Source: Shigella phage ESh17
Strand: one strand, 5' to 3'
Length of the DNA: 64,000 bases
Sequence record: ON528727
Each line of letters opens with the position of its first letter. Within the stretch, counting starts at the first letter, position 1. The notes under the pieces are model-generated. The model saw only the letters and a program-made list of their open reading frames with translations, was not told where the DNA came from and did not search any database. Shown piece after piece: positions 5,469-58,402 of this stretch. The position numbers and the translations under genes are program-made.

Positions 5469-5498
5469 GTTTACATCCTTGTCCTTCCATGGTACTAT
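5469..5498 (+). promoter_or_regulatory. Early promoter
   Basis: GGTTTACA, 18 nt, TACTAT. Confidence 0.5.
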
Positions 5499-5541
5499 AC
5501 AACTATCGGCAATACTGCTGATGATTAAAGAGGAAAATAAT

Positions 5542-5769
5542 ATGGCTAAAGTTGATATTGACATCGTTGATTTTGAATATATCGAAGAAATTATTCGTAA
5601 TCGTTATCCTGAACTTAGTATCACAAGCGTGCAAGATTCTAAGTTTTGGAGTATTCAAATCGTTATTGAAGGTCCTCTTGAAGACCTCACCCGCTTTATG
5701 GCTAATGAGTATTGTGATGGTATGGATTCTGAAGACGCAGAATTTTACATGGGACTGATTGAACAATAA
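5542..5769 (+). CDS. Hypothetical early protein (frd.3 position)
   Basis: ORF with SD AAGAGG 9 nt before ATG 5542; track ORF starts at TTG 5479 upstream of the likely transcript start. Confidence 0.5.
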
Positions 5770-5815: not shown

Positions 5816-6202
5816 ATGGAAGTTGGAAAAACTTATATCATTAACCCTTTATTTAAAAATGACTTTGCTAACGAGTGCCGTTGCAATGTAATGATGCTAA
5901 ATTTAATAGAGAAGCACGGACCTAGTTTTGTTGTAGATGAAATGGAAAGTGATGATTGTGCTGGTGAATGTGTGGTACGTGTAACTATGGAAGATGGCAC
6001 TAAATACATGGCGGGTGGCCCACTTGAGACGTATTTTGAGATTTACTCTGAAGAATTCAAATACTTTACTGAGGTAACTTTAGAAAAGCCTCAATCCGCT
6101 AATGAAGGTATAGTTTCTGGCGTAACAAAAATTCACTGCATTGTTGACGAAAACAATGTAGATGAAATCATTGAACTTTTGCGAAAAACTTTCAAAAAGT
6201 AG
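5816..6202 (+). CDS. Hypothetical early protein, Cys-rich (frd.x position)
   Basis: 128 aa ORF, SD GAGGA, follows terminator hairpin. Confidence 0.6.
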   Translation: MEVGKTYIINPLFKNDFANECRCNVMMLNLIEKHGPSFVVDEMESDDCAGECVVRVTMEDGTKYMAGGPLETYFEIYSEEFKYFTEVTLEKPQSANEGIVSGVTKIHCIVDENNVDEIIELLRKTFKK

Positions 6203-6231
6203 TTTACAACAGGGTAGTAGTGTGATACTAT
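6202..6231 (+). promoter_or_regulatory. Early promoter with dyad symmetry AGGGTA/TACCCT around the -10
   Basis: GTTTACA, spacer, TACTAT; inverted repeat 6211-6216/6232-6237. Confidence 0.5.
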
Positions 6232-6259
6232 TACCCTATCAACTACTGAGGAGAATAAA

Positions 6260-6502
6260 ATGAGATTACAACGCCAGAGCATCAAAGATTCAGAAGTTAG
6301 AGGTAAATGGTATTTTAATATCATCGGTAAAGATTCTGATCTCGTTGAAAAAGCTGAACATCTTTTACGTGACATGGGATGGGAAGATGAATGCGATGGA
6401 TGTCCTCTTTATGAAGACGGAGAAAGCGCAGGATTTTGGATTTACCATTCTGACGTCGAGCAGTTTAAAGCTGATTGGAAAATTGTGAAAAAGTCTGTTT
6501 GA
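6260..6502 (+). CDS. Hypothetical early protein
   Basis: 80 aa ORF with SD GAGGAG, own early promoter upstream. Confidence 0.6.
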   Translation: MRLQRQSIKDSEVRGKWYFNIIGKDSDLVEKAEHLLRDMGWEDECDGCPLYEDGESAGFWIYHSDVEQFKADWKIVKKSV

Positions 6503-11475: not shown

Positions 11476-12654
11476 ATGAGCACAGTTTTTAATACAAATC
11501 CAGTTGATGTTTTAAAAGAACCTATGTTTTTTGGTTCAGGTCTTGGTATTGCGCGTTATGATATTCAACGTCATAAAGTTTTTGAAGATTTAACCGAAAA
11601 GCAATTATCATTTTTCTGGCGTCCTGAAGAAGTAAACTTGATGATGGATGCTGCACAGTTTAATAAGCTTCCTCAGTATCAGAAAAATATTTTTACTAAT
11701 AATCTGAAATATCAATCACTTTTGGATAGCATTCAGGGTCGTGCGCCGTCTGCTGTACTTATGTCATTAATTTCAGACCCAAGCCTTGATACATGGGTTG
11801 CTACGTGGACTTTTAGTGAAACTATTCACAGCCGTTCATATACACATATCATGCGAAATCTTTATACTGATCCATCGAAGGTGTTTGATGAGATTGTATT
11901 AGATGAAGCTATTATGAAACGTGCTGAATCCATTGGACGTTATTATGATGATGTTCTGATTAAAACTCGTTATTGGGAAAACGCTAAAGCTGATATCAAA
12001 TACCAAAAAGAAATTAATGCAGACGAAGACGTTATTGAAGATGCTATTGAGCATGAGACATATTGGAAGCATGAGCTAATGAAATCTCTTTACCTCTGTT
12101 TGCATGTAATCAACGCATTGGAAGCTATTCGTTTTTATGTATCTTTCGCATGTACCTTTAACTTCCATAAAAACATGGAAATCATGGAAGGTAATGCCAA
12201 GATTATGAAGTTCATTGCGCGCGATGAGCAACTTCACCTTAAAGGCACTCAATATATTATTCGTCAGCTTCAATCCGGTACTGATGGTGATGAATGGGTT
12301 AAAATTGCTCAAGAGTGTGAACAAGAAGCAGTTGATATTTTCATGGAAGTTAACCGCCAAGAAAAAGATTGGGCGGTTCATTTATTTAAAGATGGCGATG
12401 TTCCTGGATTAAATACAAATAGCATGTGGAGCTTTATTGATTACTTAACTGTATCTCGTATGAAACAGTGTGGTCTTCCATGCCCAATTACCGATGCTCC
12501 GGTTAAACATCCATATCCTTGGATTCGTGAATATCTTAATTCTGATAATGTTCAATCCGCGCCACAAGAAGTAGAACTGTCATCTTATCTTGTTGCACAG
12601 ATTGATAATGATGTTGATGATAAAGTTATGATGAGTTTTAAAAAATATTTTTAA
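11476..12654 (+). CDS. nrdB: Aerobic ribonucleotide reductase small subunit (uninterrupted)
   Basis: 392 aa MSTVFNTNPVDVLKEPMFFGSG..., continuous ORF. Confidence 0.96.
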   Translation: MSTVFNTNPVDVLKEPMFFGSGLGIARYDIQRHKVFEDLTEKQLSFFWRPEEVNLMMDAAQFNKLPQYQKNIFTNNLKYQSLLDSIQGRAPSAVLMSLISDPSLDTWVATWTFSETIHSRSYTHIMRNLYTDPSKVFDEIVLDEAIMKRAESIGRYYDDVLIKTRYWENAKADIKYQKEINADEDVIEDAIEHETYWKHELMKSLYLCLHVINALEAIRFYVSFACTFNFHKNMEIMEGNAKIMKFIARDEQLHLKGTQYIIRQLQSGTDGDEWVKIAQECEQEAVDIFMEVNRQEKDWAVHLFKDGDVPGLNTNSMWSFIDYLTVSRMKQCGLPCPITDAPVKHPYPWIREYLNSDNVQSAPQEVELSSYLVAQIDNDVDDKVMMSFKKYF

Positions 12655-12659
12655 GGAGT

Positions 12660-12678
12660 GGGCCGCAAGGCCCATTTT
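12660..12678 (+). terminator. Hairpin/terminator between nrdB and denA
   Basis: GGGCC-gcaa-GGCCC then ATTTT, just before denA ATG. Confidence 0.5.
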
Positions 12679-12681
12679 ATT

Positions 12682-14269
<1,588 letters not shown>

Positions 14270-14272
14270 GCT

Positions 14273-14326
14273 GTTTACAAGTCCCTCGTGTTGTGTTATA
14301 GTAGTCTTACTGACATAACATGAGGA
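14273..14326 (+). repeat. 54 bp promoter/leader cassette, copy 1 (upstream of alc)
   Basis: GTTTACAAGTCCCTCGTGTTGTGTTA...TTACTGACATAACATGAGGA nearly identical to 29620-29673. Confidence 0.7.
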
Positions 14327-14330
14327 CTTT

Positions 14331-14837
14331 ATGATGGATTTGCAGCTTATTACTACTGAAATGGTCGTTGAAGCATACGGTGATACTACAGATGGGATTT
14401 CTGTATTCAAAGGAAATCGTCGAGTTGGATATATCACCGATCTTAAGAAAGATTTAGCTAAGCAAGTCAAGCGGAAAACGACCATTAAAGAATATCGAAA
14501 TCGTCGTCTTGAGCAAGCTCGTGATATGCTTCCTGATGCGGTTGAAGAGATGAAAGTCTTTTTAGAAAATCAACTCGCTAAGTATGATTGTGATGTGTTC
14601 ATTAATCAGACTCAACCTAATGTTCATATTAACAACTGTAAATGCTATATCATCGTTAATCCTTTAACGGGAAAACATCGTCTTGGAATTAGTAATCCAA
14701 ATCGTAGCGCATCGGATATGGCAGAAGATGTTGAGGCATGCTTTAAAATTTCTAAATCTCCTGCTGAACATCATATTTTAATTAACGGTCTTTCTCAAGA
14801 CGATATTATAGAGGTTATTAAAACTTTATGCAATTAA
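14331..14837 (+). CDS. alc: Alc, inhibitor of host transcription on cytosine DNA
   Basis: 168 aa ORF at alc position between rnlA and pseT cluster; recalled T4 Alc size about 167 aa. Confidence 0.75.
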   Translation: MMDLQLITTEMVVEAYGDTTDGISVFKGNRRVGYITDLKKDLAKQVKRKTTIKEYRNRRLEQARDMLPDAVEEMKVFLENQLAKYDCDVFINQTQPNVHINNCKCYIIVNPLTGKHRLGISNPNRSASDMAEDVEACFKISKSPAEHHILINGLSQDDIIEVIKTLCN

Positions 14838-15181
14838 GTAATACGACAGCAGGTTTGCTATTACTTGTAATAGTATTTGGCGGAACATCTATTATTTTAA
14901 AAAATAAGGTAGAAAGATTAGAAACATCGGTTACTGAAATTACAAAAACGGCCAATGAAAACGCCTTAGCATTAAATAATTTGCGAATTCAGTATAATTA
15001 TATTGATGCGATGAATAATAAAAATCGTGAGGCAATTGCTGCTATTGAGCGTGAAAATGAAAAACTGCGCAAAGACGCAAAGAAGGCGGATGTGGTGGCT
15101 CATAAGCCAGGATTGGTTGAAAAACAAATCAACAACTCCTTCAACAAGTTCGCAGAAGACATCCAGGACCTTTCTAAATGA
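14828..15181 (+). CDS. Hypothetical membrane-anchored coiled-coil protein (pseT.3 position)
   Basis: N-terminal hydrophobic segment LLLLVIVFGGTSIIL then charged helical region. Confidence 0.6.
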   Translation: MQLSNTTAGLLLLVIVFGGTSIILKNKVERLETSVTEITKTANENALALNNLRIQYNYIDAMNNKNREAIAAIERENEKLRKDAKKADVVAHKPGLVEKQINNSFNKFAEDIQDLSK

Positions 15182-15477
15182 TTAAACTATCAGCAGTAAT
15201 ATTATCTATTGGTCTTCTAGTTGGTTGTTCTACAAAGCCTCTAGAAGTAAAGAAAGAAACAGTTCATCCTAATTGGCCTGTACAAATAAAGTCATATGAC
15301 GAAGCTAAACTATCTTGGCAAGTTAAAGTTATCGATGGTAAAGCTTGGGTCGGTATGCCATTTGAAGATTCTCAGGAATTTCGTATTTGGCTTAATGATG
15401 TAAAACGATATGTACATGACCAGAAAACTATGATATGCTATTATCGTCAAGAGTTAAAAGAGGATAAATGTAAATGA
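15178..15477 (+). CDS. Hypothetical lipoprotein (pseT.2 position)
   Basis: Signal peptide with lipobox LLVGC. Confidence 0.6.
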   Translation: MIKLSAVILSIGLLVGCSTKPLEVKKETVHPNWPVQIKSYDEAKLSWQVKVIDGKAWVGMPFEDSQEFRIWLNDVKRYVHDQKTMICYYRQELKEDKCK

Positions 15478-15701
15478 TTTCATGGCATCAATTTGAACAT
15501 CTCAAAGGATTGATTTATGAATCCGAGATGGCTGCAATGATTTATGGACGCCAGATTCAGCGGTTAGAATCTTTACCTCCAACTAATGATGTTTTATTAG
15601 CTCAATCACGTGCTAATCTCAAAAATGAATATCAAAATAAGTGGGGTAAAGCATCTAAAGACCTGTATGATTATATTCAATCATTGGTTGAGGAAAAATA
15701 A
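15474..15701 (+). CDS. Hypothetical protein
   Basis: 75 aa ORF, ATGA overlap with upstream gene. Confidence 0.55.
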   Translation: MISWHQFEHLKGLIYESEMAAMIYGRQIQRLESLPPTNDVLLAQSRANLKNEYQNKWGKASKDLYDYIQSLVEEK

Positions 15702-17579: not shown

Positions 17580-17609
17580 GTTTACTTTACGGTAGAGTTG
17601 TGATATTAT
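17580..17609 (+). promoter_or_regulatory. Early promoter with dyad symmetry GGTAGAG/CTCTACC
   Basis: GTTTACT, 18 nt, TATTAT; inverted repeat 17591-17597/17612-17618. Confidence 0.5.
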
Positions 17610-17638
17610 AGCTCTACCAAACAAATGAGGAAAACAAA

Positions 17639-17878
17639 ATGCTGCTAAGTGAAAAACCAATTACTGTTAAAGAATTCCAAGAAAAAGTTAAACTATTTGC
17701 GCAGGAATTAGTAAATAAGGTTTCTGAACGATTTCCTGAAACATCGGTTCGTGTTATTACCGAAACTCCTCGTTCAGTATTAGTAATTGTGAATCCAGGT
17801 GATGGCGATCAAATATCGCATCTTAAATTGGATTTTGATGGATTAGTTGAAGCACAAAGGGTGTATGGCGTACTATGA
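17639..17878 (+). CDS. Hypothetical protein (cd.x cluster)
   Basis: 79 aa ORF downstream of early promoter, SD GAGG. Confidence 0.55.
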   Translation: MLLSEKPITVKEFQEKVKLFAQELVNKVSERFPETSVRVITETPRSVLVIVNPGDGDQISHLKLDFDGLVEAQRVYGVL

Positions 17879-20545: not shown

Positions 20546-20550
20546 GTTGA

Positions 20551-20574
20551 GGACTCCTTCGGGAGTCCTTTTTT
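20551..20574 (+). terminator. Intrinsic terminator after 30.9-position ORF
   Basis: GGACTCC-ttcg-GGAGTCC then TTTTTT. Confidence 0.8.
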
Positions 20575-20598
20575 ATTTTCCAAAGATTGCATAAAGTT

Positions 20599-20628
20599 GT
20601 TTACAGTATAGTTCCTTTGTGATAGTAT
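20599..20628 (+). promoter_or_regulatory. Early promoter
   Basis: GTTTACA, 18 nt, TAGTAT; CCTTTGT 20614-20620 is complementary to ACAAAGG at the SD. Confidence 0.5.
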
Positions 20629-20655
20629 TATCTTACACAAACAAAGGAGAATAAA

Positions 20656-21024
20656 ATGAAAATCAATCTTAACTCATACATCAAAGGTAAAGATCACGAC
20701 GGCTATAAAGCTATCGAAACTAAAGAACTTCAGTGGCACTTATACAAAGAACAATTTGAATTTGTAAGTTGCATGACTCCTGAAGGTCCTTCTGATGATT
20801 TCTCTTGGAAAATAATGTTAACTAACTTTTTTACTGGAGATACATACGAATTGAAAACTTTGATTATTGGTAAAATTCGTTGTGAGACTTATGAAGATAA
20901 AGAAACTGGTTACTCTGAAGATGTTACGTGGTATCAAAATGGTCGTATTACCGCTGACCTCTTGATTGAAAAAATGAAAGCCAAAGGTGAATTAAATTTA
21001 GATAATTGGATTAAAGTTGCATAA
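20656..21024 (+). CDS. Hypothetical protein (30.x cluster)
   Basis: 122 aa ORF, SD AAGGAG, early promoter upstream. Confidence 0.55.
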   Translation: MKINLNSYIKGKDHDGYKAIETKELQWHLYKEQFEFVSCMTPEGPSDDFSWKIMLTNFFTGDTYELKTLIIGKIRCETYEDKETGYSEDVTWYQNGRITADLLIEKMKAKGELNLDNWIKVA

Positions 21025-21028
21025 AATA

Positions 21029-21058
21029 GTTTACTTTGGTACAGGATATGATATTATA
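21029..21058 (+). promoter_or_regulatory. Early promoter with dyad symmetry GGTACAGG/CCTGTACC
   Basis: GTTTACT, 17 nt, TATTAT; 8 bp inverted repeat 21038-21045/21061-21068. Confidence 0.5.
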
Positions 21059-21093
21059 TACCTGTACCGCAATTAAACATCTTGGAGAATAAA

Positions 21094-21459
21094 ATGAACT
21101 ACATCAACTTTGAACGTAAATATGTTTCTAATGGTATTGCAGGTTCTATTGATACTATCTGCCTTTGGAAACATCAAAATGGATCAGTATGCGAAATTGA
21201 ACAGTATATGACTCCTAACTACGTTTATATGCGATTTGAAAATGGAATCACGGTTTCAATCACAATGGAAGGTTCAAACTTCAAAATCGCTCTGGATGAT
21301 GATTTTCGTCAACGTGATTTAGGGACTCATCCTTGCTGGAATGGTGCTAATCGCAAGCTTTTGGTTAAAACTTGGATTCGTCATATTCTGAGTAATAGAG
21401 CTAAACCTGAGCATCTTGAAGCAATCTTTGATGTAGTTCTTAACGAATTTGATATTTAA
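21094..21459 (+). CDS. Hypothetical protein (30.x cluster)
   Basis: First ATG after SD GGAG (track TTG 21082). Confidence 0.55.
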   Translation: MNYINFERKYVSNGIAGSIDTICLWKHQNGSVCEIEQYMTPNYVYMRFENGITVSITMEGSNFKIALDDDFRQRDLGTHPCWNGANRKLLVKTWIRHILSNRAKPEHLEAIFDVVLNEFDI

Positions 21460-25434: not shown

Positions 25435-25442
25435 TATAAATA
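25435..25442 (+). promoter_or_regulatory. Late promoter TATAAATA for alt
   Basis: TATAAATA about 24 bp before alt ATG, after a terminator hairpin. Confidence 0.6.
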
Positions 25443-25465: not shown

Positions 25466-27559
25466 ATGGAACTCATTACAGAATTATTTGACGAAGATAC
25501 TACTCTTCCGATTACAAACTTAAATCCAAAGAAGAAAATACCGCAAATTTTTTCAGTTCATGTTGATGACGCAATTGAACAACCAGGCTTTCGTTTATGT
25601 ACCTATACATCTGGAGGTGATACTAATCGCGATTTAAAGATGGGCGATAAAATGATGCATATTGTTCCTTTTACATTAACTGCTAAAGGTTCAATTGCTA
25701 AATTAAAAGGTCTCGGTCCAAGCCCAATTAATTACATCAATTCAGTTTTTACTGTTGCAATGCAAACGATGCGTCAGTATAAAATTGATGCCTGCATGCT
25801 CCGTATTCTTAAGTCTAAAACTGCTGGTCAAGCTCGTCAAATTCAACTTATTGCTGATAGACTTATCCGCAGTCGTTCAGGTGGCAGATACGTCCTTCTT
25901 AAGGAACTCTGGGATTACGATAAAAAGTATGCATATATTCTTATACATCGCAAAAATGTATCACTAGAAGACATTCCAGGAGTTCCGGAAATTAGTACCG
26001 AGCTCTTTACTAAAGTTGAATCGAAGGTCGGTGATGTTTATATCAATAAAGATACTGGAGCTCAAGTAACTAAAAATGAGGCAATTGCAGCATCTATTGC
26101 GCAAGAAAATGATAAACGTTCTGACCAAGCTGTAATCGTTAAAGTTAAAATTTCACGTAGAGCAATTGCGCAAAGTCAATCATTGGAATCTTCTAGATTT
26201 GAAAGTGAATTATTCCAGAAGTATGAATCTACCGCAGCTAATTTCAATAAACCTGCTACCGCTCCTTTAATTCCCGAAGCAGAAGAAATGAAGCTTGGAA
26301 TTAATTCGTTAGCTTCTAAAACTAAGGCAGCAAAAATTATTGCCGAAGGAACTGCGAATGAACTTCACTATGACTATAAATTCTTTTCAAAAAGTGAGGT
26401 TGATGAAGTTTCAGAAAAAATTAAAGATGTAATTTTTAACGCAATCAAAAATGAACCAACTACTTCAATAAAATGTTTAGAGAAATACGCAGCAGCTGTT
26501 AATAAATTCTTTGAAGAATATAAAGATAATTGGCTTGATAAACATAATAAAACTCGTAAAGGGCAACCAGATGAAGTCTGGGGAGAAATAACTAAAAATG
26601 CATGGAATGCAGCAAAAACTAAATTCCTCAAACGAATGATTTATAGCTTTTCTGGAATTGGTGCTGGTCCAATGATTGATATTACTATTGCCCGTGATGG
26701 TTCTAAATATACTCCATCACAAAAGCGAGGTATTAGAGAATATTGTGGTTCAGGATATACAGACATTAATAATCTTCTTTTAGGTCGTTACAATCCAGAA
26801 CGATATGATGTAATGAGTGAAAAAGAAATTGAATCTGCTATAAATAATTTAGATTCAGCTTTTGAAAATGGTGACCGCATACCGGAAGGCATTACAGTTT
26901 ATCGTGCTCAAAGTATGACTGCTCCTATATACGAAGCACTAGTTAAAAATAAAGTGTTCTATTTCAGAAATTTTGTATCTACTTCTTTAACTCCTATCAT
27001 TTTTGGACGTTTTGGAATTACACATGCTGGTATTGGTCTTTTAGAACCAGAAGCTCGCAATGAATTAACAGTTGATAAAAATGAAGAAGGAATAACTATT
27101 AATCCAAACGAAATAAGAGCGTATAAAGAAAATCCTGAATACGTTAAAGTTCAAATAGGATGGGCAATTGATGGAGCTCATAAAGTTAATGTTGTATATC
27201 CAGGAAGTCTCGGAATAGCAACAGAAGCCGAAGTTATTCTACCGCGCGGATTGATGGTCAAAGTTAATAAAATAACTGATGCTTCTAATAATGACGGAAC
27301 CACGTCTAATAATACAAAACTCATTCAAGCTGAAGTTATGACCACCGAAGAACTCACCGAATCGGTAATTTATGACGGTGACCGTTTAATGGAAACCGGC
27401 GAAGTAGTTGCAATGACAGGTGATATTGAAATAGAAGACAGAGTTGACTTTGCATCATTTGTTTCATCAAATGTTAAACAGAAAGTAGAATCATCTCTTG
27501 GAATTATTGCGTCTTGCATAGATATTACAAACATGCCTTACAAGTTCGTTCAAGGATAA
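25466..27559 (+). CDS. alt: Alt ADP-ribosyltransferase (head-packaged, injected)
   Basis: 697 aa MELITELFD..., ART motifs TVYRAQS, FVSTSL, EAEVILPRG; late promoter upstream. Confidence 0.9.
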   Translation: MELITELFDEDTTLPITNLNPKKKIPQIFSVHVDDAIEQPGFRLCTYTSGGDTNRDLKMGDKMMHIVPFTLTAKGSIAKLKGLGPSPINYINSVFTVAMQTMRQYKIDACMLRILKSKTAGQARQIQLIADRLIRSRSGGRYVLLKELWDYDKKYAYILIHRKNVSLEDIPGVPEISTELFTKVESKVGDVYINKDTGAQVTKNEAIAASIAQENDKRSDQAVIVKVKISRRAIAQSQSLESSRFESELFQKYESTAANFNKPATAPLIPEAEEMKLGINSLASKTKAAKIIAEGTANELHYDYKFFSKSEVDEVSEKIKDVIFNAIKNEPTTSIKCLEKYAAAVNKFFEEYKDNWLDKHNKTRKGQPDEVWGEITKNAWNAAKTKFLKRMIYSFSGIGAGPMIDITIARDGSKYTPSQKRGIREYCGSGYTDINNLLLGRYNPERYDVMSEKEIESAINNLDSAFENGDRIPEGITVYRAQSMTAPIYEALVKNKVFYFRNFVSTSLTPIIFGRFGITHAGIGLLEPEARNELTVDKNEEGITINPNEIRAYKENPEYVKVQIGWAIDGAHKVNVVYPGSLGIATEAEVILPRGLMVKVNKITDASNNDGTTSNNTKLIQAEVMTTEELTESVIYDGDRLMETGEVVAMTGDIEIEDRVDFASFVSSNVKQKVESSLGIIASCIDITNMPYKFVQG

Positions 27560-27562
27560 ATC

Positions 27563-29620
27563 ATGGAACTTATTACAGAATTATTTGACGGCGCTTCGGC
27601 GCCGGTTGTTAACTTAAATCCTAAGCATAAAATACCACAAATTTTTGCTATTCAAGCCGGTGAAGAAAGCGTGCTTCCTGGATTTAGATTTTGTACATAC
27701 ACCTCTGGCGGTGATACGAATAAAAACGTTAAGCCAGGCGATAAAATGATGCATATCGTAATGATAGGTGTCAACGAGAAATTATCGCTGGTTAAGCTTA
27801 GAAACTTGGGTGGAAATCCAATTGGCGTCATTAATGCTGTTTTTGATACTGCTCTTCAAACAATGAAACAGTATAAAATTGACGCATGCCTATTCCGCGT
27901 ACTAAAAAGTAAAACAAATGGCGCTGCTCGTCAAATGCAAGTTATTGCTGACCGTTTAGTACGTACTAAAGGAGCAGGTCGATATGTTCTTTTAAAGGAA
28001 ATCTGGGACTATGATAAAAAGTATGCATATATTATGGTTTACCGTAAAAATGCCAATTTAGAAGACATTCCAGGTGTACCTCCTATTTCAACTGAGTTAT
28101 TCACAAAAGTTGAATCGAAGGTCGGTGATGTTTATGTAGATGTTAAAACAGGTAATGCTGTTCCTAAAGCTGTCGCTGTTGCTGCTTCTATTGCTTTAGA
28201 AAATGATAAGCGCACGGATCAAGCTGTTATTCAAAAAACTAAAATTAGTCGTCGATTAGCAGCACAAGCTCAATATTCTACTGTCGATGCTTCACTTCAG
28301 GGTGATAGCTTCGCTGCTAAGAAATATCAAGAGTTTGAATCTAAAGTTCCGGTATATAAAGCAGAAGGTCCGATGAACTCTGGCGTTATCCAGATTGGTT
28401 CAAACTTCAGCAAAGGAGCTATCGGTGGTATGAGGAGTGCTTCTCGTTTTAAATCTAGCGATTATGAACTAGAAAACTTCCGAAATCATATTGCATTGGC
28501 CCATGCACGTTTACGTGATCCATCTATCAAGTTGCAGAGCGATATAACATATCAAGGTTCTCAAGAATATTTAAAGAATAAAGAATTCTTTGATTATAAA
28601 ACTGATAAAATTTTAAGCGATCTTGCTGACATTAATATTTCTAATAGCTTTGATGTTATTAAGAAAATTATTAATGATTTAGTTAAAGGTTCTAAAGCTA
28701 CGCCAGATGAAAAGACAGCTATTATTCAATTTGTCATGAATGGCATTTATAAATTGATTAATGAATCTGCTGCCCAGGCATATGAATATGCAAGCACCGA
28801 AGTAACTCCAAAAGGATTAACTCAGGCTGAGTCTGATGTAATTGAAGATTATTGTGCAGATTCATATGTTGAAATGAACTCGTTCCTCTTGGGTAAACCA
28901 GATTCTACCCGTGAAGAATACATGGAACGAGCTATTAAACACATCGAGACAATGGATTCTGCATTCGCTAAAGGTTCAGTTCTTCCTCCAGGAACTACGC
29001 TTTATCGTGGACAAGAAGTTACTTTTAAAACTTTACGTCATAATATTGAAAACAAAATGTTCTATTTCAAGAACTTTGTATCCACGTCGCTTAAACCAAA
29101 CATCTTCGGTGAGCATGGTAAAAACTATATGGCTCTAGATGATTCCGGTGCAGTATTTTCTGGTGAAGGAGAAGGTTCTGTTGATGCTGAAGATTTAATG
29201 CATATGGGTAGTCACTCTGCTTATGCGAATGAAGACGCTGAAACTAGCGTAGGTATGGTAATTAAAGGGGCTGAGCGAATCAAAGTTATCGTTCCAGGTC
29301 ATTTATCAGGATTTCCATCAGAAGCTGAAGTTATTTTACCGCGTGGAATTTTGCTGAAGATTAATAAAGTGAGCACGTACATGATGAAAGAAACTGCTTA
29401 TAATAAGTATCTAATCGAAGGCACAATCGTTCCTCCTTCTGAACAATTAGAAGAATCGGTATATGATGGCGATCATCTAATGGAAACTGGTGAAGTTCGT
29501 CCAATGGCTGGGTTTAATCAATTCCTTGTAGAAGAATCAAAAGAAGAGGAAAACGAAGTTTCTCAAATCTTGGCTTCTTTGGTTAACATCAACGGAATGT
29601 CTAAAAAGTTCAAGATGTAG
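27563..29620 (+). CDS. Alt-like ADP-ribosyltransferase paralogue
   Basis: 685 aa; same N-terminus MELITELFD and same ART motifs (TLYRGQE, FVSTSL, EAEVILPRG), divergent middle region. Confidence 0.8.
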   Translation: MELITELFDGASAPVVNLNPKHKIPQIFAIQAGEESVLPGFRFCTYTSGGDTNKNVKPGDKMMHIVMIGVNEKLSLVKLRNLGGNPIGVINAVFDTALQTMKQYKIDACLFRVLKSKTNGAARQMQVIADRLVRTKGAGRYVLLKEIWDYDKKYAYIMVYRKNANLEDIPGVPPISTELFTKVESKVGDVYVDVKTGNAVPKAVAVAASIALENDKRTDQAVIQKTKISRRLAAQAQYSTVDASLQGDSFAAKKYQEFESKVPVYKAEGPMNSGVIQIGSNFSKGAIGGMRSASRFKSSDYELENFRNHIALAHARLRDPSIKLQSDITYQGSQEYLKNKEFFDYKTDKILSDLADINISNSFDVIKKIINDLVKGSKATPDEKTAIIQFVMNGIYKLINESAAQAYEYASTEVTPKGLTQAESDVIEDYCADSYVEMNSFLLGKPDSTREEYMERAIKHIETMDSAFAKGSVLPPGTTLYRGQEVTFKTLRHNIENKMFYFKNFVSTSLKPNIFGEHGKNYMALDDSGAVFSGEGEGSVDAEDLMHMGSHSAYANEDAETSVGMVIKGAERIKVIVPGHLSGFPSEAEVILPRGILLKINKVSTYMMKETAYNKYLIEGTIVPPSEQLEESVYDGDHLMETGEVRPMAGFNQFLVEESKEEENEVSQILASLVNINGMSKKFKM

Positions 29621-29673
29621 TTTACAAGTCCCTCGTGTTGTGTTACAATAGTTTTACTGACATAACATGAGGA
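29620..29673 (+). repeat. 54 bp promoter/leader cassette, copy 2 (after alt paralogue)
   Basis: Same sequence as 14273-14326 with a few substitutions; -10 here is TACAAT. Confidence 0.7.
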
Positions 29674-29680
29674 ACACAAA

Positions 29681-29971
29681 ATGAAATCTTCTTTACGCTT
29701 TTTAGGTCAAGAACTTGTAGTTGAAGGCGTTATTCCTGCTGATAACGCTTTTAATGAAGCAGTTTATGATGAATTTATCAAAATTTTTGGAACAGATAAA
29801 AAGTTCGGAATTTTTCCTTCTGAAAATTTTTCAAAGCCAGAGCAGACTGAAAGCATTTTCCAAGGTGTAGTAACAGGTAAATTTGAGTCAGAAGCTCCGG
29901 TAAAAATTGAAGTTTATATTGAAGACAGTTTAGTTGCTTCAGTTGCTGCTTTTATTTCATTCCGTAAATAA
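29681..29971 (+). CDS. Hypothetical protein with own early promoter
   Basis: 96 aa ORF, SD GAGGA, convergent with gene 54. Confidence 0.55.
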   Translation: MKSSLRFLGQELVVEGVIPADNAFNEAVYDEFIKIFGTDKKFGIFPSENFSKPEQTESIFQGVVTGKFESEAPVKIEVYIEDSLVASVAAFISFRK

Positions 29972-29977
29972 AAATAT

Positions 29978-29995
29978 GGGGACCGAAAGGTCCCC
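29978..29995. terminator. Bidirectional terminator between convergent 96-aa ORF and gene 54
   Basis: GGGGACC-gaaa-GGTCCCC with A/T-rich flanks on both sides. Confidence 0.7.
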
Positions 29996-29999
29996 ATTG

Positions 30000-56700: not shown

Positions 56701-58402
<1,702 letters not shown>

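Follow-up and report, generated by a model that had tools for sequence, protein, structure and literature searches.

Hairpins that enclose early promoters of a T4-like phage are predicted to mask the Shine–Dalgarno sequences of alc, alt.-3 and 30.8 on read-through transcripts

Introduction

In bacteriophage T4, genes e, soc, 49 and I-TevI have a promoter placed inside a hairpin that hides the Shine–Dalgarno (SD) sequence and/or the AUG on long transcripts, a logic that has been experimentally established for e and I-TevI (PMC3014915). The internal promoter of these genes is a late one (TATAAATA, gp55); early and middle RNAs are silenced and translation is postponed. Here we describe, in a 64,000-nucleotide (nt) stretch of DNA from Shigella phage ESh17 (sequence record ON528727; the whole stretch is referred to as the window), hairpins of a comparable design at the early promoters of alc, alt.-3 and 30.8. 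As in e, soc, 49 and I-TevI, at all three sites the SD is predicted to be paired in upstream-derived transcripts, the promoter lies between the two arms, the gene's own transcript would lack the 5′ arm (considering its predicted start), and the proposed outcome is that protein synthesis is limited in time without transcription being stopped. In contrast to those genes, the internal promoter is here a sigma-70 early promoter, silencing would fall on later or longer RNAs, translation would be limited to the first minutes, and the 5′ arm is the −35/−10 spacer itself. No TATAAATA late-promoter motif is found at the alc, alt.-3 or 30.8 promoters, which are of the GTTTAC-N18-TAnnnT type. As the internal promoters are early instead of late, timing is inverted, and the sites represent a variant of the e/soc gate and not a member of it.

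A helix over the ribosome-binding site (RBS) likewise lowers long-transcript translation in homing-endonuclease genes (Aeh1 mobE, I-TevII/III, segB; PMC3014915). Unlike the ones described here, those helices are not made from an early-promoter spacer, and they keep endonuclease levels low. The original prediction, made from the DNA letters alone, held that the mechanism is documented for a few T4 genes, e and soc among them, and is not known for the loci studied here. The literature agrees with this, as PMC3014915 names only e, soc, 49, I-TevI and homing-endonuclease genes. Our literature search found no prior account of early-promoter/SD hairpins at alc, alt.-3 or 30.8, a mention in the older T4 literature being possible, and no RNA-seq start-site maps of T4.

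The promoter-early stem-loop (PeSL) cassettes known from T4-like phages (Arbiol et al. 2010; Comeau et al. 2014), for which a T4/PST consensus TTTACW-N17-TAYWAT has been given (PMC4122927), are the other related system. RB49/phi1 PeSLs fall into five positional subclasses, all ending before the start site, the SD being a separate downstream motif; the roles given for them are terminator/attenuator and recombination, and translation is not discussed in the main text (PMC2839356). In T4/PST, the PeSL stem-loop is placed upstream of the promoter (PMC4122927). The three sites share with PeSLs an upstream stop, a strong early promoter, a stem-loop with G-T pairs, the SD and the start codon, as well as repetition in the genome. 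They resemble RB49/phi1 PeSLs in having the stem-loop within the promoter (the alc, alt.-3 and 30.8 hairpins span the −10), and 30.8 resembles the T4/PST arrangement in having an additional upstream stem-loop. Unlike in PeSLs, the 3′ arm enters the transcribed leader and covers the SD, and it is not followed by a U-tract. The alc, alt.-3 and 30.8 sites combine an e/soc-type gate with a PeSL cassette.

Results

Each of the three sites contains a T4-type early promoter, in which an 18-nt spacer with TGn at its end separates GTTTAC from a TAnnnT −10 element. In a generic promoter pattern scan, the alc and alt.-3 promoters each scored 10 of 12 matches, with an extended −10. The window is orientated as the early-gene sense strand, and the promoters, hairpin arms and genes given below by coordinates lie on this plus strand. 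Between positions 13500 and 15500 it shows 100% identity with Shigella phage ESh18 (ON528728.1; Tequatrovirus) and 97–98% with about 500 T4-like genomes. T4 itself (NC_000866) has the same sequences at the alc, alt.-3 and 30.8 sites, and the finding therefore concerns T4 biology generally.

The alc early promoter (14273–14302, of identical sequence in T4) has a GTTTAC(A) −35 at 14273–14279 (GTTTAC at 14273–14278), an 18-nt spacer at 14279–14296 that ends in TGn, with TG at −15/−14, and the −10 TATAGT at 14297–14302. In the minimum free energy (MFE) structure, the 5′ arm of the alc hairpin, which includes the anti-SD CCCTC, occupies 14279–14297, upstream of the predicted start, and the 3′ arm lies in the leader at 14312–14329, over the SD GAGGA (14322–14326) and ending 1 nt before the first ATG. 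The core helix pairs CCTCGTGTT (14284–14292) with AACATGAGG (14317–14325) and contains one G-U pair. The full helix joins 14279–14297 to 14312–14329 through about 18 pairs, three of them G-U, with one bulged C, and is accompanied by a 4-bp inner stem.

The alt.-3 early promoter (29620–29649; GTTTAC at 29620–29625, −10 TACAAT at 29644–29649) is nested in a hairpin with MFE arms at 29628–29645 and 29658–29675, the latter lying over the SD GAGGA (29669–29673) upstream of the alt.-3 ATG at 29681. At 30.8, the promoter (20599–20628; GTTTAC at 20599–20604, −10 TAGTAT at 20623–20628; sequence identical in T4) lies between a 5′ arm TTCCTTTGT at 20612–20620 and a 3′ arm ACAAAGGAG at 20641–20649, as obtained by folding; the 3′ arm covers the SD AAGGAG (20644–20649) and the ATG is at 20656. 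Its core pairs CCTTTGT (20614–20620) with ACAAAGG (20641–20647), and the full stem has 9 bp. All the complementarities that had been pointed out at the three sites were present at their coordinates, including the G-U pair in the alc core and the overlap with GAGGA. The cores of the stems stood as proposed; their extent had been understated, the folded helices being larger.

The significance of the folds was assessed with 200 dinucleotide shuffles per site and also with spacer-only shuffles. The read-through fold of alc has a free energy of −24.4 kcal/mol (z = −4.3), and none of the 200 shuffles was as good; against spacer shuffles, z was −5.4 to −6.3. For alt.-3 the corresponding value is −20.8 kcal/mol (z = −3.9; 0/200). 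The 30.8 site is the weakest of the three, with −12.1 kcal/mol, z = −2.1 and four of 200 shuffles as good (z = −3.05 against spacer-only shuffles). RNAs started at the local promoter, modelled from a putative start about 7 nt after the −10, gave −4.2, −2.2 and 0 kcal/mol for alc, alt.-3 and 30.8, respectively; they are predicted to be unstructured and are no better than shuffles. This is the comparison of read-through and promoter-initiated 5′ ends that had been suggested for the prediction.

According to predicted MFE structures and partition-function accessibility, the SD lies in the stem at the three sites, and opening it in read-through RNA would cost 8–15 kcal/mol. Exposure of the SD..AUG segment is predicted to require 13.0 kcal/mol in read-through versus 3.6 in local RNA at alc, 13–15 versus 2.3 at alt.-3, and about 8 versus 1.6 at 30.8, meaning that read-through adds approximately 9, 11–13 and 6–7 kcal/mol, respectively. 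These costs hardly vary when 0, 100, 200 or 400 nt of upstream context are included. The proposal that the SD is buried in read-through RNA and free in promoter-started RNA thus holds in the predicted folds.

From the −35 to the SD, a stretch of about 55 nt, alc and alt.-3 have near-identical cassettes. They share an identical 20-nt 5′-arm core (29626–29645 at alt.-3), of which no third copy occurs in the window (0.01 chance matches expected). The two copies differ at three positions, all of them in the loop (−10 and start region), and the arms are unchanged; the corresponding T4 pair has one difference in 53 nt. In one alt.-3 variant (L067), the 5′ arm has three changes which turn a G-U pair into A-U and a C-G pair into U-G and lengthen the pairing onto alt.-3's own GAGGAAC, the hairpin reaching −25.7 kcal/mol. 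As that arm has been re-fitted to the flank of the alt.-3 SD, the alt.-3 copy is evolving toward its own context.

A tblastn search with Alc returned more than 1,100 phage records, and rnlA–alc junctions were compared in nine other lineages, five more distant ones and 46 IMG/VR contigs. In most genera examined rnlA lies directly before alc, with a gap of about 55–65 nt that contains a GTTTAC promoter. Exceptions in gene order are an extra open reading frame (ORF) in Gaprivervirus and other genes upstream of alc in Ac42 and Cronobacter LPCS28.

Pairing between spacer and SD before alc is kept, with different sequences, in at least nine other genus-level lineages. The orthologous stems have 9–15 bp, and in the following lineages their sequences (5′/3′ arms) are wholly unlike those of T4: Gelderlandvirus (ATCTCCGTTTAGTT/AACTAAACGGAGAT), Karamvirus (TCTCCATTTGG/CCAAATGGAGA), Jiaodavirus (ATCCTCATCAG/CTGATGAGGAT), Bragavirus (AACCTCTCATTTT/AAAATGAGAGGTT), Dhakavirus (TCTCCTCAT/ATGAGGAGA), Winklervirus (TCCTCATTTCGTT/AACGAAATGAGGA) and, from IMG/VR, L027 (ATCCTCATTTTGTTG/CAACAAAATGAGGAT) and L046/L048 (CCTCGTTTGTT/AACAAACGAGG). 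The IMG/VR lineage L041 is a further one with such pairing. The table of orthologous pairs contains two-sided changes at spacer positions 4, 5 and 7–12, and the 108 pairs comprise 102 Watson–Crick and 6 G-U pairs. As an alignment-free control, with folds done independently for each lineage, the duplex of each alc spacer with its own leader was compared with deranged combinations: own pairs gave a mean of −16.7 kcal/mol versus −9.4 ± 0.86 for deranged ones, and none of 18,281 derangements equalled the former. A column-wise count of covariation was dropped: since MAFFT aligns by sequence, the 3′ arms no longer matched up when it was applied to eight alc promoter-leaders. Orthologues of 30.8 in other genera also have spacer–SD pairing with other sequences, such as TCCAGTG/CACTGGA and, with one G-U pair, TCTCCGGT/ACTGGAGA.

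No hairpin is found at the alc promoter in Aeromonas phages and Ac42. Two RB69-like lineages, L007 (NHEP11) and L042, have a different spacer of their own about 60 nt before the alc ATG at 404, with a small hairpin (ACACC..GGTGT). The RB69-like 3′ arm AACAACACGAGGAG would pair with the T4 alc spacer at −20.6 kcal/mol, and it looks as if the upstream promoter half of this cassette had been exchanged. In the Gaprivervirus phages (L005, which is VR7, 88–404; also L015, L030 and L031), the extra ORF between rnlA and alc encodes 78 amino acids, is annotated in VR7 as 'inhibitor of host transcription', and is preceded by a GC-rich hairpin with a T-rich tail, overlapping a GTGTAC −35; these phages lack a dedicated alc promoter.

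Beyond what had been pointed out, early promoters nested in hairpins occur genome-wide, and the three sites are among them. Six of the eight promoters of the window with a perfect GTTTAC lie in hairpins with z ≤ −3 (spacer-only shuffles), and those at 14273, 20599 and 29620 have SD-masking hairpins. The hairpins at 6202–6262, 17580–17641 and 21029–21096 have free energies of −15.2, −18.3 and −19.4 kcal/mol (z = −3.2, −4.7 and −5.0, respectively); the very beginning of the transcript makes up their 3′ arm, and the structures would form in read-through RNA only.

A census of about 91% of the T4 genome (positions 100001–114999 were left out) yielded 29 distinct early promoters with a nearby SD and start codon. 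Duplexes between spacer and own leader average −9.07 kcal/mol versus −6.64 for permuted pairs (z = −5.8, p < 5e-5). Counting the leader from +1 truncates stems with a 3′ arm that starts right after the −10, and nested promoters were for that reason counted by whole-region folds: 13 of the 29 promoter regions have z < −3 versus spacer shuffles. The sense strand of these regions folds at −13.8 kcal/mol versus −10.3 for the antisense strand (Wilcoxon p = 3.5e-4), an asymmetry that fits RNA with G-U pairs and to which base composition could contribute. Of the 29 T4 spacers, 9 contain an anti-SD tetramer, compared with 9.2% of random 18-mers (p = 9e-4). Eight T4 promoters have strong duplexes over the SD (−11 to −22 kcal/mol), those of motB.2 (the well-studied P8.1), nrdC.8, regB, denV, alt.-3, 30.8, alc and ndd.4.

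At the T4 regB promoter (NC_000866, 62740–62797; L018), the spacer TTTTCCTCTTGACTG pairs with CAGTTAAGAGGAGAA over the regB SD at −21.4 kcal/mol. This SD (GGAG) has been reported as a RegB cleavage site (PMC3014915), and regB may have two layers of ribosome-site control.

No Rfam 15 family reached its gathering score anywhere in the window, and a scan of 14200–14400 at an E-value threshold gave as sole sub-threshold match a chance hit to mir-5 (E = 0.85). The T4 RefSeq record has no annotated feature at the hairpins. Three familiar types of element were ruled out. The alc and alt.-3 hairpins are not intrinsic terminators, as they have no U-tract (their tails are CUUUAUGAUG and AACACAAAAUG) and gave no hit in the terminator scan. 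A conserved RNase III stem of about two turns (≥20 bp) is at odds with the length of the orthologous stems; those of alc and alt.-3 in Tequatrovirus are the only ones close to 20 bp. With respect to a protein operator or palindrome, the arms vary between genera while the pairing stays, and the stems have G-U pairs.

Upstream of alc, rnlA (gene 63) is annotated at 13145–14269, its TAA stop (14267–14269) being located 9 nt before the 5′ arm. The alc coding sequence (14331–14837, from the ORF list and annotation) begins with adjacent ATGs at 14331 and 14334 (14331–14336), the first of which is used in the ESh18 annotation and the second in T4. The SD is spaced 4 nt from the first and 7 nt from the second, and this latter spacing favours the second ATG. 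Upstream of alt.-3, a full-length alt paralogue is annotated at 27563–29620. This second alt-like gene is intact and 2058 nt long, at a place where T4 retains nothing but the remnants alt.-1 and alt.-2, and its TAG stop (29618–29620) shares a base with the first G of the alt.-3 −35. A perfect 9-bp, GC-rich hairpin at 29976–29997 lies between alt.-3 and a convergent tail gene (gene 54 homologue); the scan finds it terminator-like on both strands, which suggests a bidirectional terminator. Upstream of the 30.8 promoter, a terminator-like hairpin with a T-run is seen in the sequence at 20550–20575, in the PeSL arrangement, and it is also present in T4 and at orthologous 30.8 loci.

Discussion

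We propose that the hairpins at alc, alt.-3 and 30.8 probably restrict translation to the gene's own early transcripts, that is, that they act as translational insulation. The promoter spacer provides the 5′ arm and has an anti-SD stretch right after the −35; the 3′ arm is leader sequence that begins at about +3 and takes in the SD of the next gene. As the 5′ arm lies upstream of the predicted start, the helix is expected to form only in RNA arriving from upstream. Locally started RNA, without the 5′ arm, would have an open ribosome site, and alc, alt.-3 and 30.8 would be translated during the few minutes in which early promoters fire. Upstream-derived RNA with both arms would fold locally and bury the SD, leaving the downstream cistron untranslated. 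The RNAs silenced in this way would be, at alc, early and middle transcripts running through nrd-denA-rnlA; at alt.-3, alt transcripts, late ones included; and at 30.8, whatever passes the upstream terminator. The outcome would be expression from the own promoter only, hence early only, despite ongoing transcription across the gene. This proposal is supported by the energetics, the geometry, the covariation, the genome-wide excess and consistent omics data.

The existence and amount of the read-through RNA, like the block to 30S binding, are inferred. A pattern scan found no sense-strand intrinsic terminator in 12500–15500 or 27000–29975, which take in the ends of the upstream genes together with the alc and alt.-3 sites. 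Among mapped middle promoters, PnrdA, PnrdB and PI-TevIII are located upstream of rnlA-alc, the next one listed downstream being Pcd (PMC2988021, Table 1), and a late-promoter motif TATAAATA is present at 25435–25442, just before alt. With no terminator before either gene, with those middle promoters upstream of alc and with the late-promoter motif at alt, read-through at alc and alt.-3 is plausible. In T4 omics data, alc, alt.-3, 30.8, regB, denV, motB.2 and nrdC.8 are classified as early-RNA/early-protein, rnlA and nrdB as early-RNA/late-protein, and Alt protein rises late (PMC9697503). These published data are consistent with insulation, in a circumstantial manner.

Several observations weigh against this proposal. 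RB69-like phages have no spacer–SD pairing at alc, and the pairing, being lost there, is therefore dispensable. In PSTCR6 (Providencia), L038/L053, L044 and Acinetobacter phages, the alc hairpin across the −10 stops short of the SD. The hairpins at 6202, 17580 and 21029 in the window and at 57990 in T4 leave the SD free, and about half of the hairpin-nested early promoters exclude it; promoter-spanning hairpins must therefore have some RBS-independent function. In very short leaders, the SD could in part be included incidentally, and for the hairpin class as a whole, masking of the SD may not be what is selected. The 30.8 site is weak and already behind a terminator, which should remove most read-through there. 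The omics classification is coarse and could also reflect mRNA decay, RegB or detection limits. Finally, the stem might not stay closed in vivo, either because ribosomes reach the end of the upstream gene or because of co-transcriptional effects.

The hairpins might instead be PeSL-type insulators or attenuators that act on the upstream transcript, possibly by polymerase pausing or termination or as a 3′ stability barrier for the processed upstream mRNA, the overlap with the SD arising incidentally when a hairpin has to fit into an intergenic gap of 60 nt. In RB49/phi1, stem-loops located between the −35 and −10, or over the boxes, are common, and one of them cut expression of a downstream lacZ about like a strong terminator (PMC2839356). 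Many T4-family promoter hairpins leave the SD untouched, alc and alt.-3 form a repeated cassette as PeSLs do, and 30.8 has the upstream stem-loop of the T4/PST type (PMC4122927). We nevertheless consider this explanation unlikely, a non-canonical form of attenuation being a possibility: an A-rich SD–AUG spacer, and not a U-tract, follows every SD-covering hairpin, and the terminator scan was blank on the sense strand at alc and alt.-3. Furthermore, in the SD-covering alc orthologues the SD/anti-SD pairs are the outermost conserved ones and always come right after the −35, spacers are enriched in anti-SD tetramers, and the alt.-3 variant has an arm re-fitted to SD-flanking bases. Translational coupling, by which the SD would stay closed on polycistronic RNA until a ribosome finishing the upstream gene melts the hairpin, would tie read-through expression to upstream translation, not abolish it. 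The upstream stops are indeed near the 5′ arm, at a distance of 9 nt for alc and 7 nt for alt.-3, and in Braga- and Dhakavirus the TAG stop overlaps the −35, about 6 nt from the anti-SD. The helicase action of the ribosome reaches about 5 nt past a stop codon in the A site. A terminating ribosome would therefore open at most one or two pairs of stems of 10–20 bp, and tight coupling is also difficult to reconcile with rnlA giving a late protein and alc an early one; we judge coupling improbable.

A quite improbable alternative is that the inverted repeat around the −10 works at the DNA level, in promoter function, cruciform formation or cassette recombination, and not through RNA folding. PeSLs have been proposed as recombination substrates, with crossovers mapped to loops and to the interval from the −10 to the SD (PMC2839356). 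The near-identity of the alc and alt.-3 cassettes would fit this, and so would the RB69-like alc promoter, where a T4-type 3′ arm stands beside a different spacer as if a half-cassette had been swapped. Yet arm sequences vary freely between genera while complementarity is kept, which makes sequence-specific protein binding unlikely; the G-U pairs and the folding asymmetry in favour of the sense strand indicate sense RNA, and recombination accounts for the duplication and not for the covariation. Chance complementarity between a pyrimidine-rich spacer and a purine-rich SD would occasionally produce anti-SD/SD matches of 4–5 nt, and 30.8 taken alone has a z of only about −2 to −3. Against it stand the shuffles, none of which matches the alc or alt.-3 energies, the covariation across genera and the T4-wide excess over permuted pairs. 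Chance is extremely improbable overall, and for alc and alt.-3 it is effectively refuted.

Work on temporal gene control in virulent phages takes T4 as its reference. That early protein synthesis ends sharply in T4 is ascribed to an incompletely understood shut-off of early promoters and to RegB cleavage (PMC3014915), and a widespread mismatch in timing between T4 mRNAs and proteins has been called unexplained, with Shine–Dalgarno context among the topics to study (PMC9697503). A spacer acting as anti-SD would explain how alc can be early-only directly after rnlA, whose protein keeps accumulating, without a terminator between them. If translational insulation is true, it gives the T4 early promoter region, which is unusually rich in information, a second meaning and adds a translational role to PeSLs, so far discussed only as promoters, attenuators and recombination sites. 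It is also a potential compact design rule for synthetic operons in which a cistron has to be expressed from its own promoter alone.

Roughly a quarter of early promoters carry a spacer anti-SD, and we put forward, tentatively and as a possibility that we do not favour, that this amounts to a genome-wide translational insulation code in T4-like phages. Under such a code, early cistrons (alc, regB, denV, motB.2 and alt.-3 among them) would be translated solely from own-promoter RNA, and synthesis of their proteins would end at early-promoter shut-off although middle and late transcription crosses the genes. Encoded in cis and needing no factor, the code would contribute to the abrupt fall in early protein synthesis and to the mRNA–protein timing mismatches of T4, and it would be the mirror image of the e/soc late-gene gate.

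Two further observations concern promoter-like sequences elsewhere in the window. A −10 and leader block, TGGTACTATACAACTATC, is shared by the site at 5469–5544 of the window and by T4 sites at 27080, 53943, 55384, 70696, 146875 and 163673; in five of the six T4 copies it extends with AACTAC, and the spacers and SD regions differ. This block is a repeated cassette, as expected for PeSL-type shuffling. At 1640–1700, a perfect GTTTAC-N18-TACAAT promoter-like site lies on the plus strand, antisense within a homologue of tail-fibre gene 34, and its spacer and downstream region form an inverted repeat (CTGGAG/CTCCAG).

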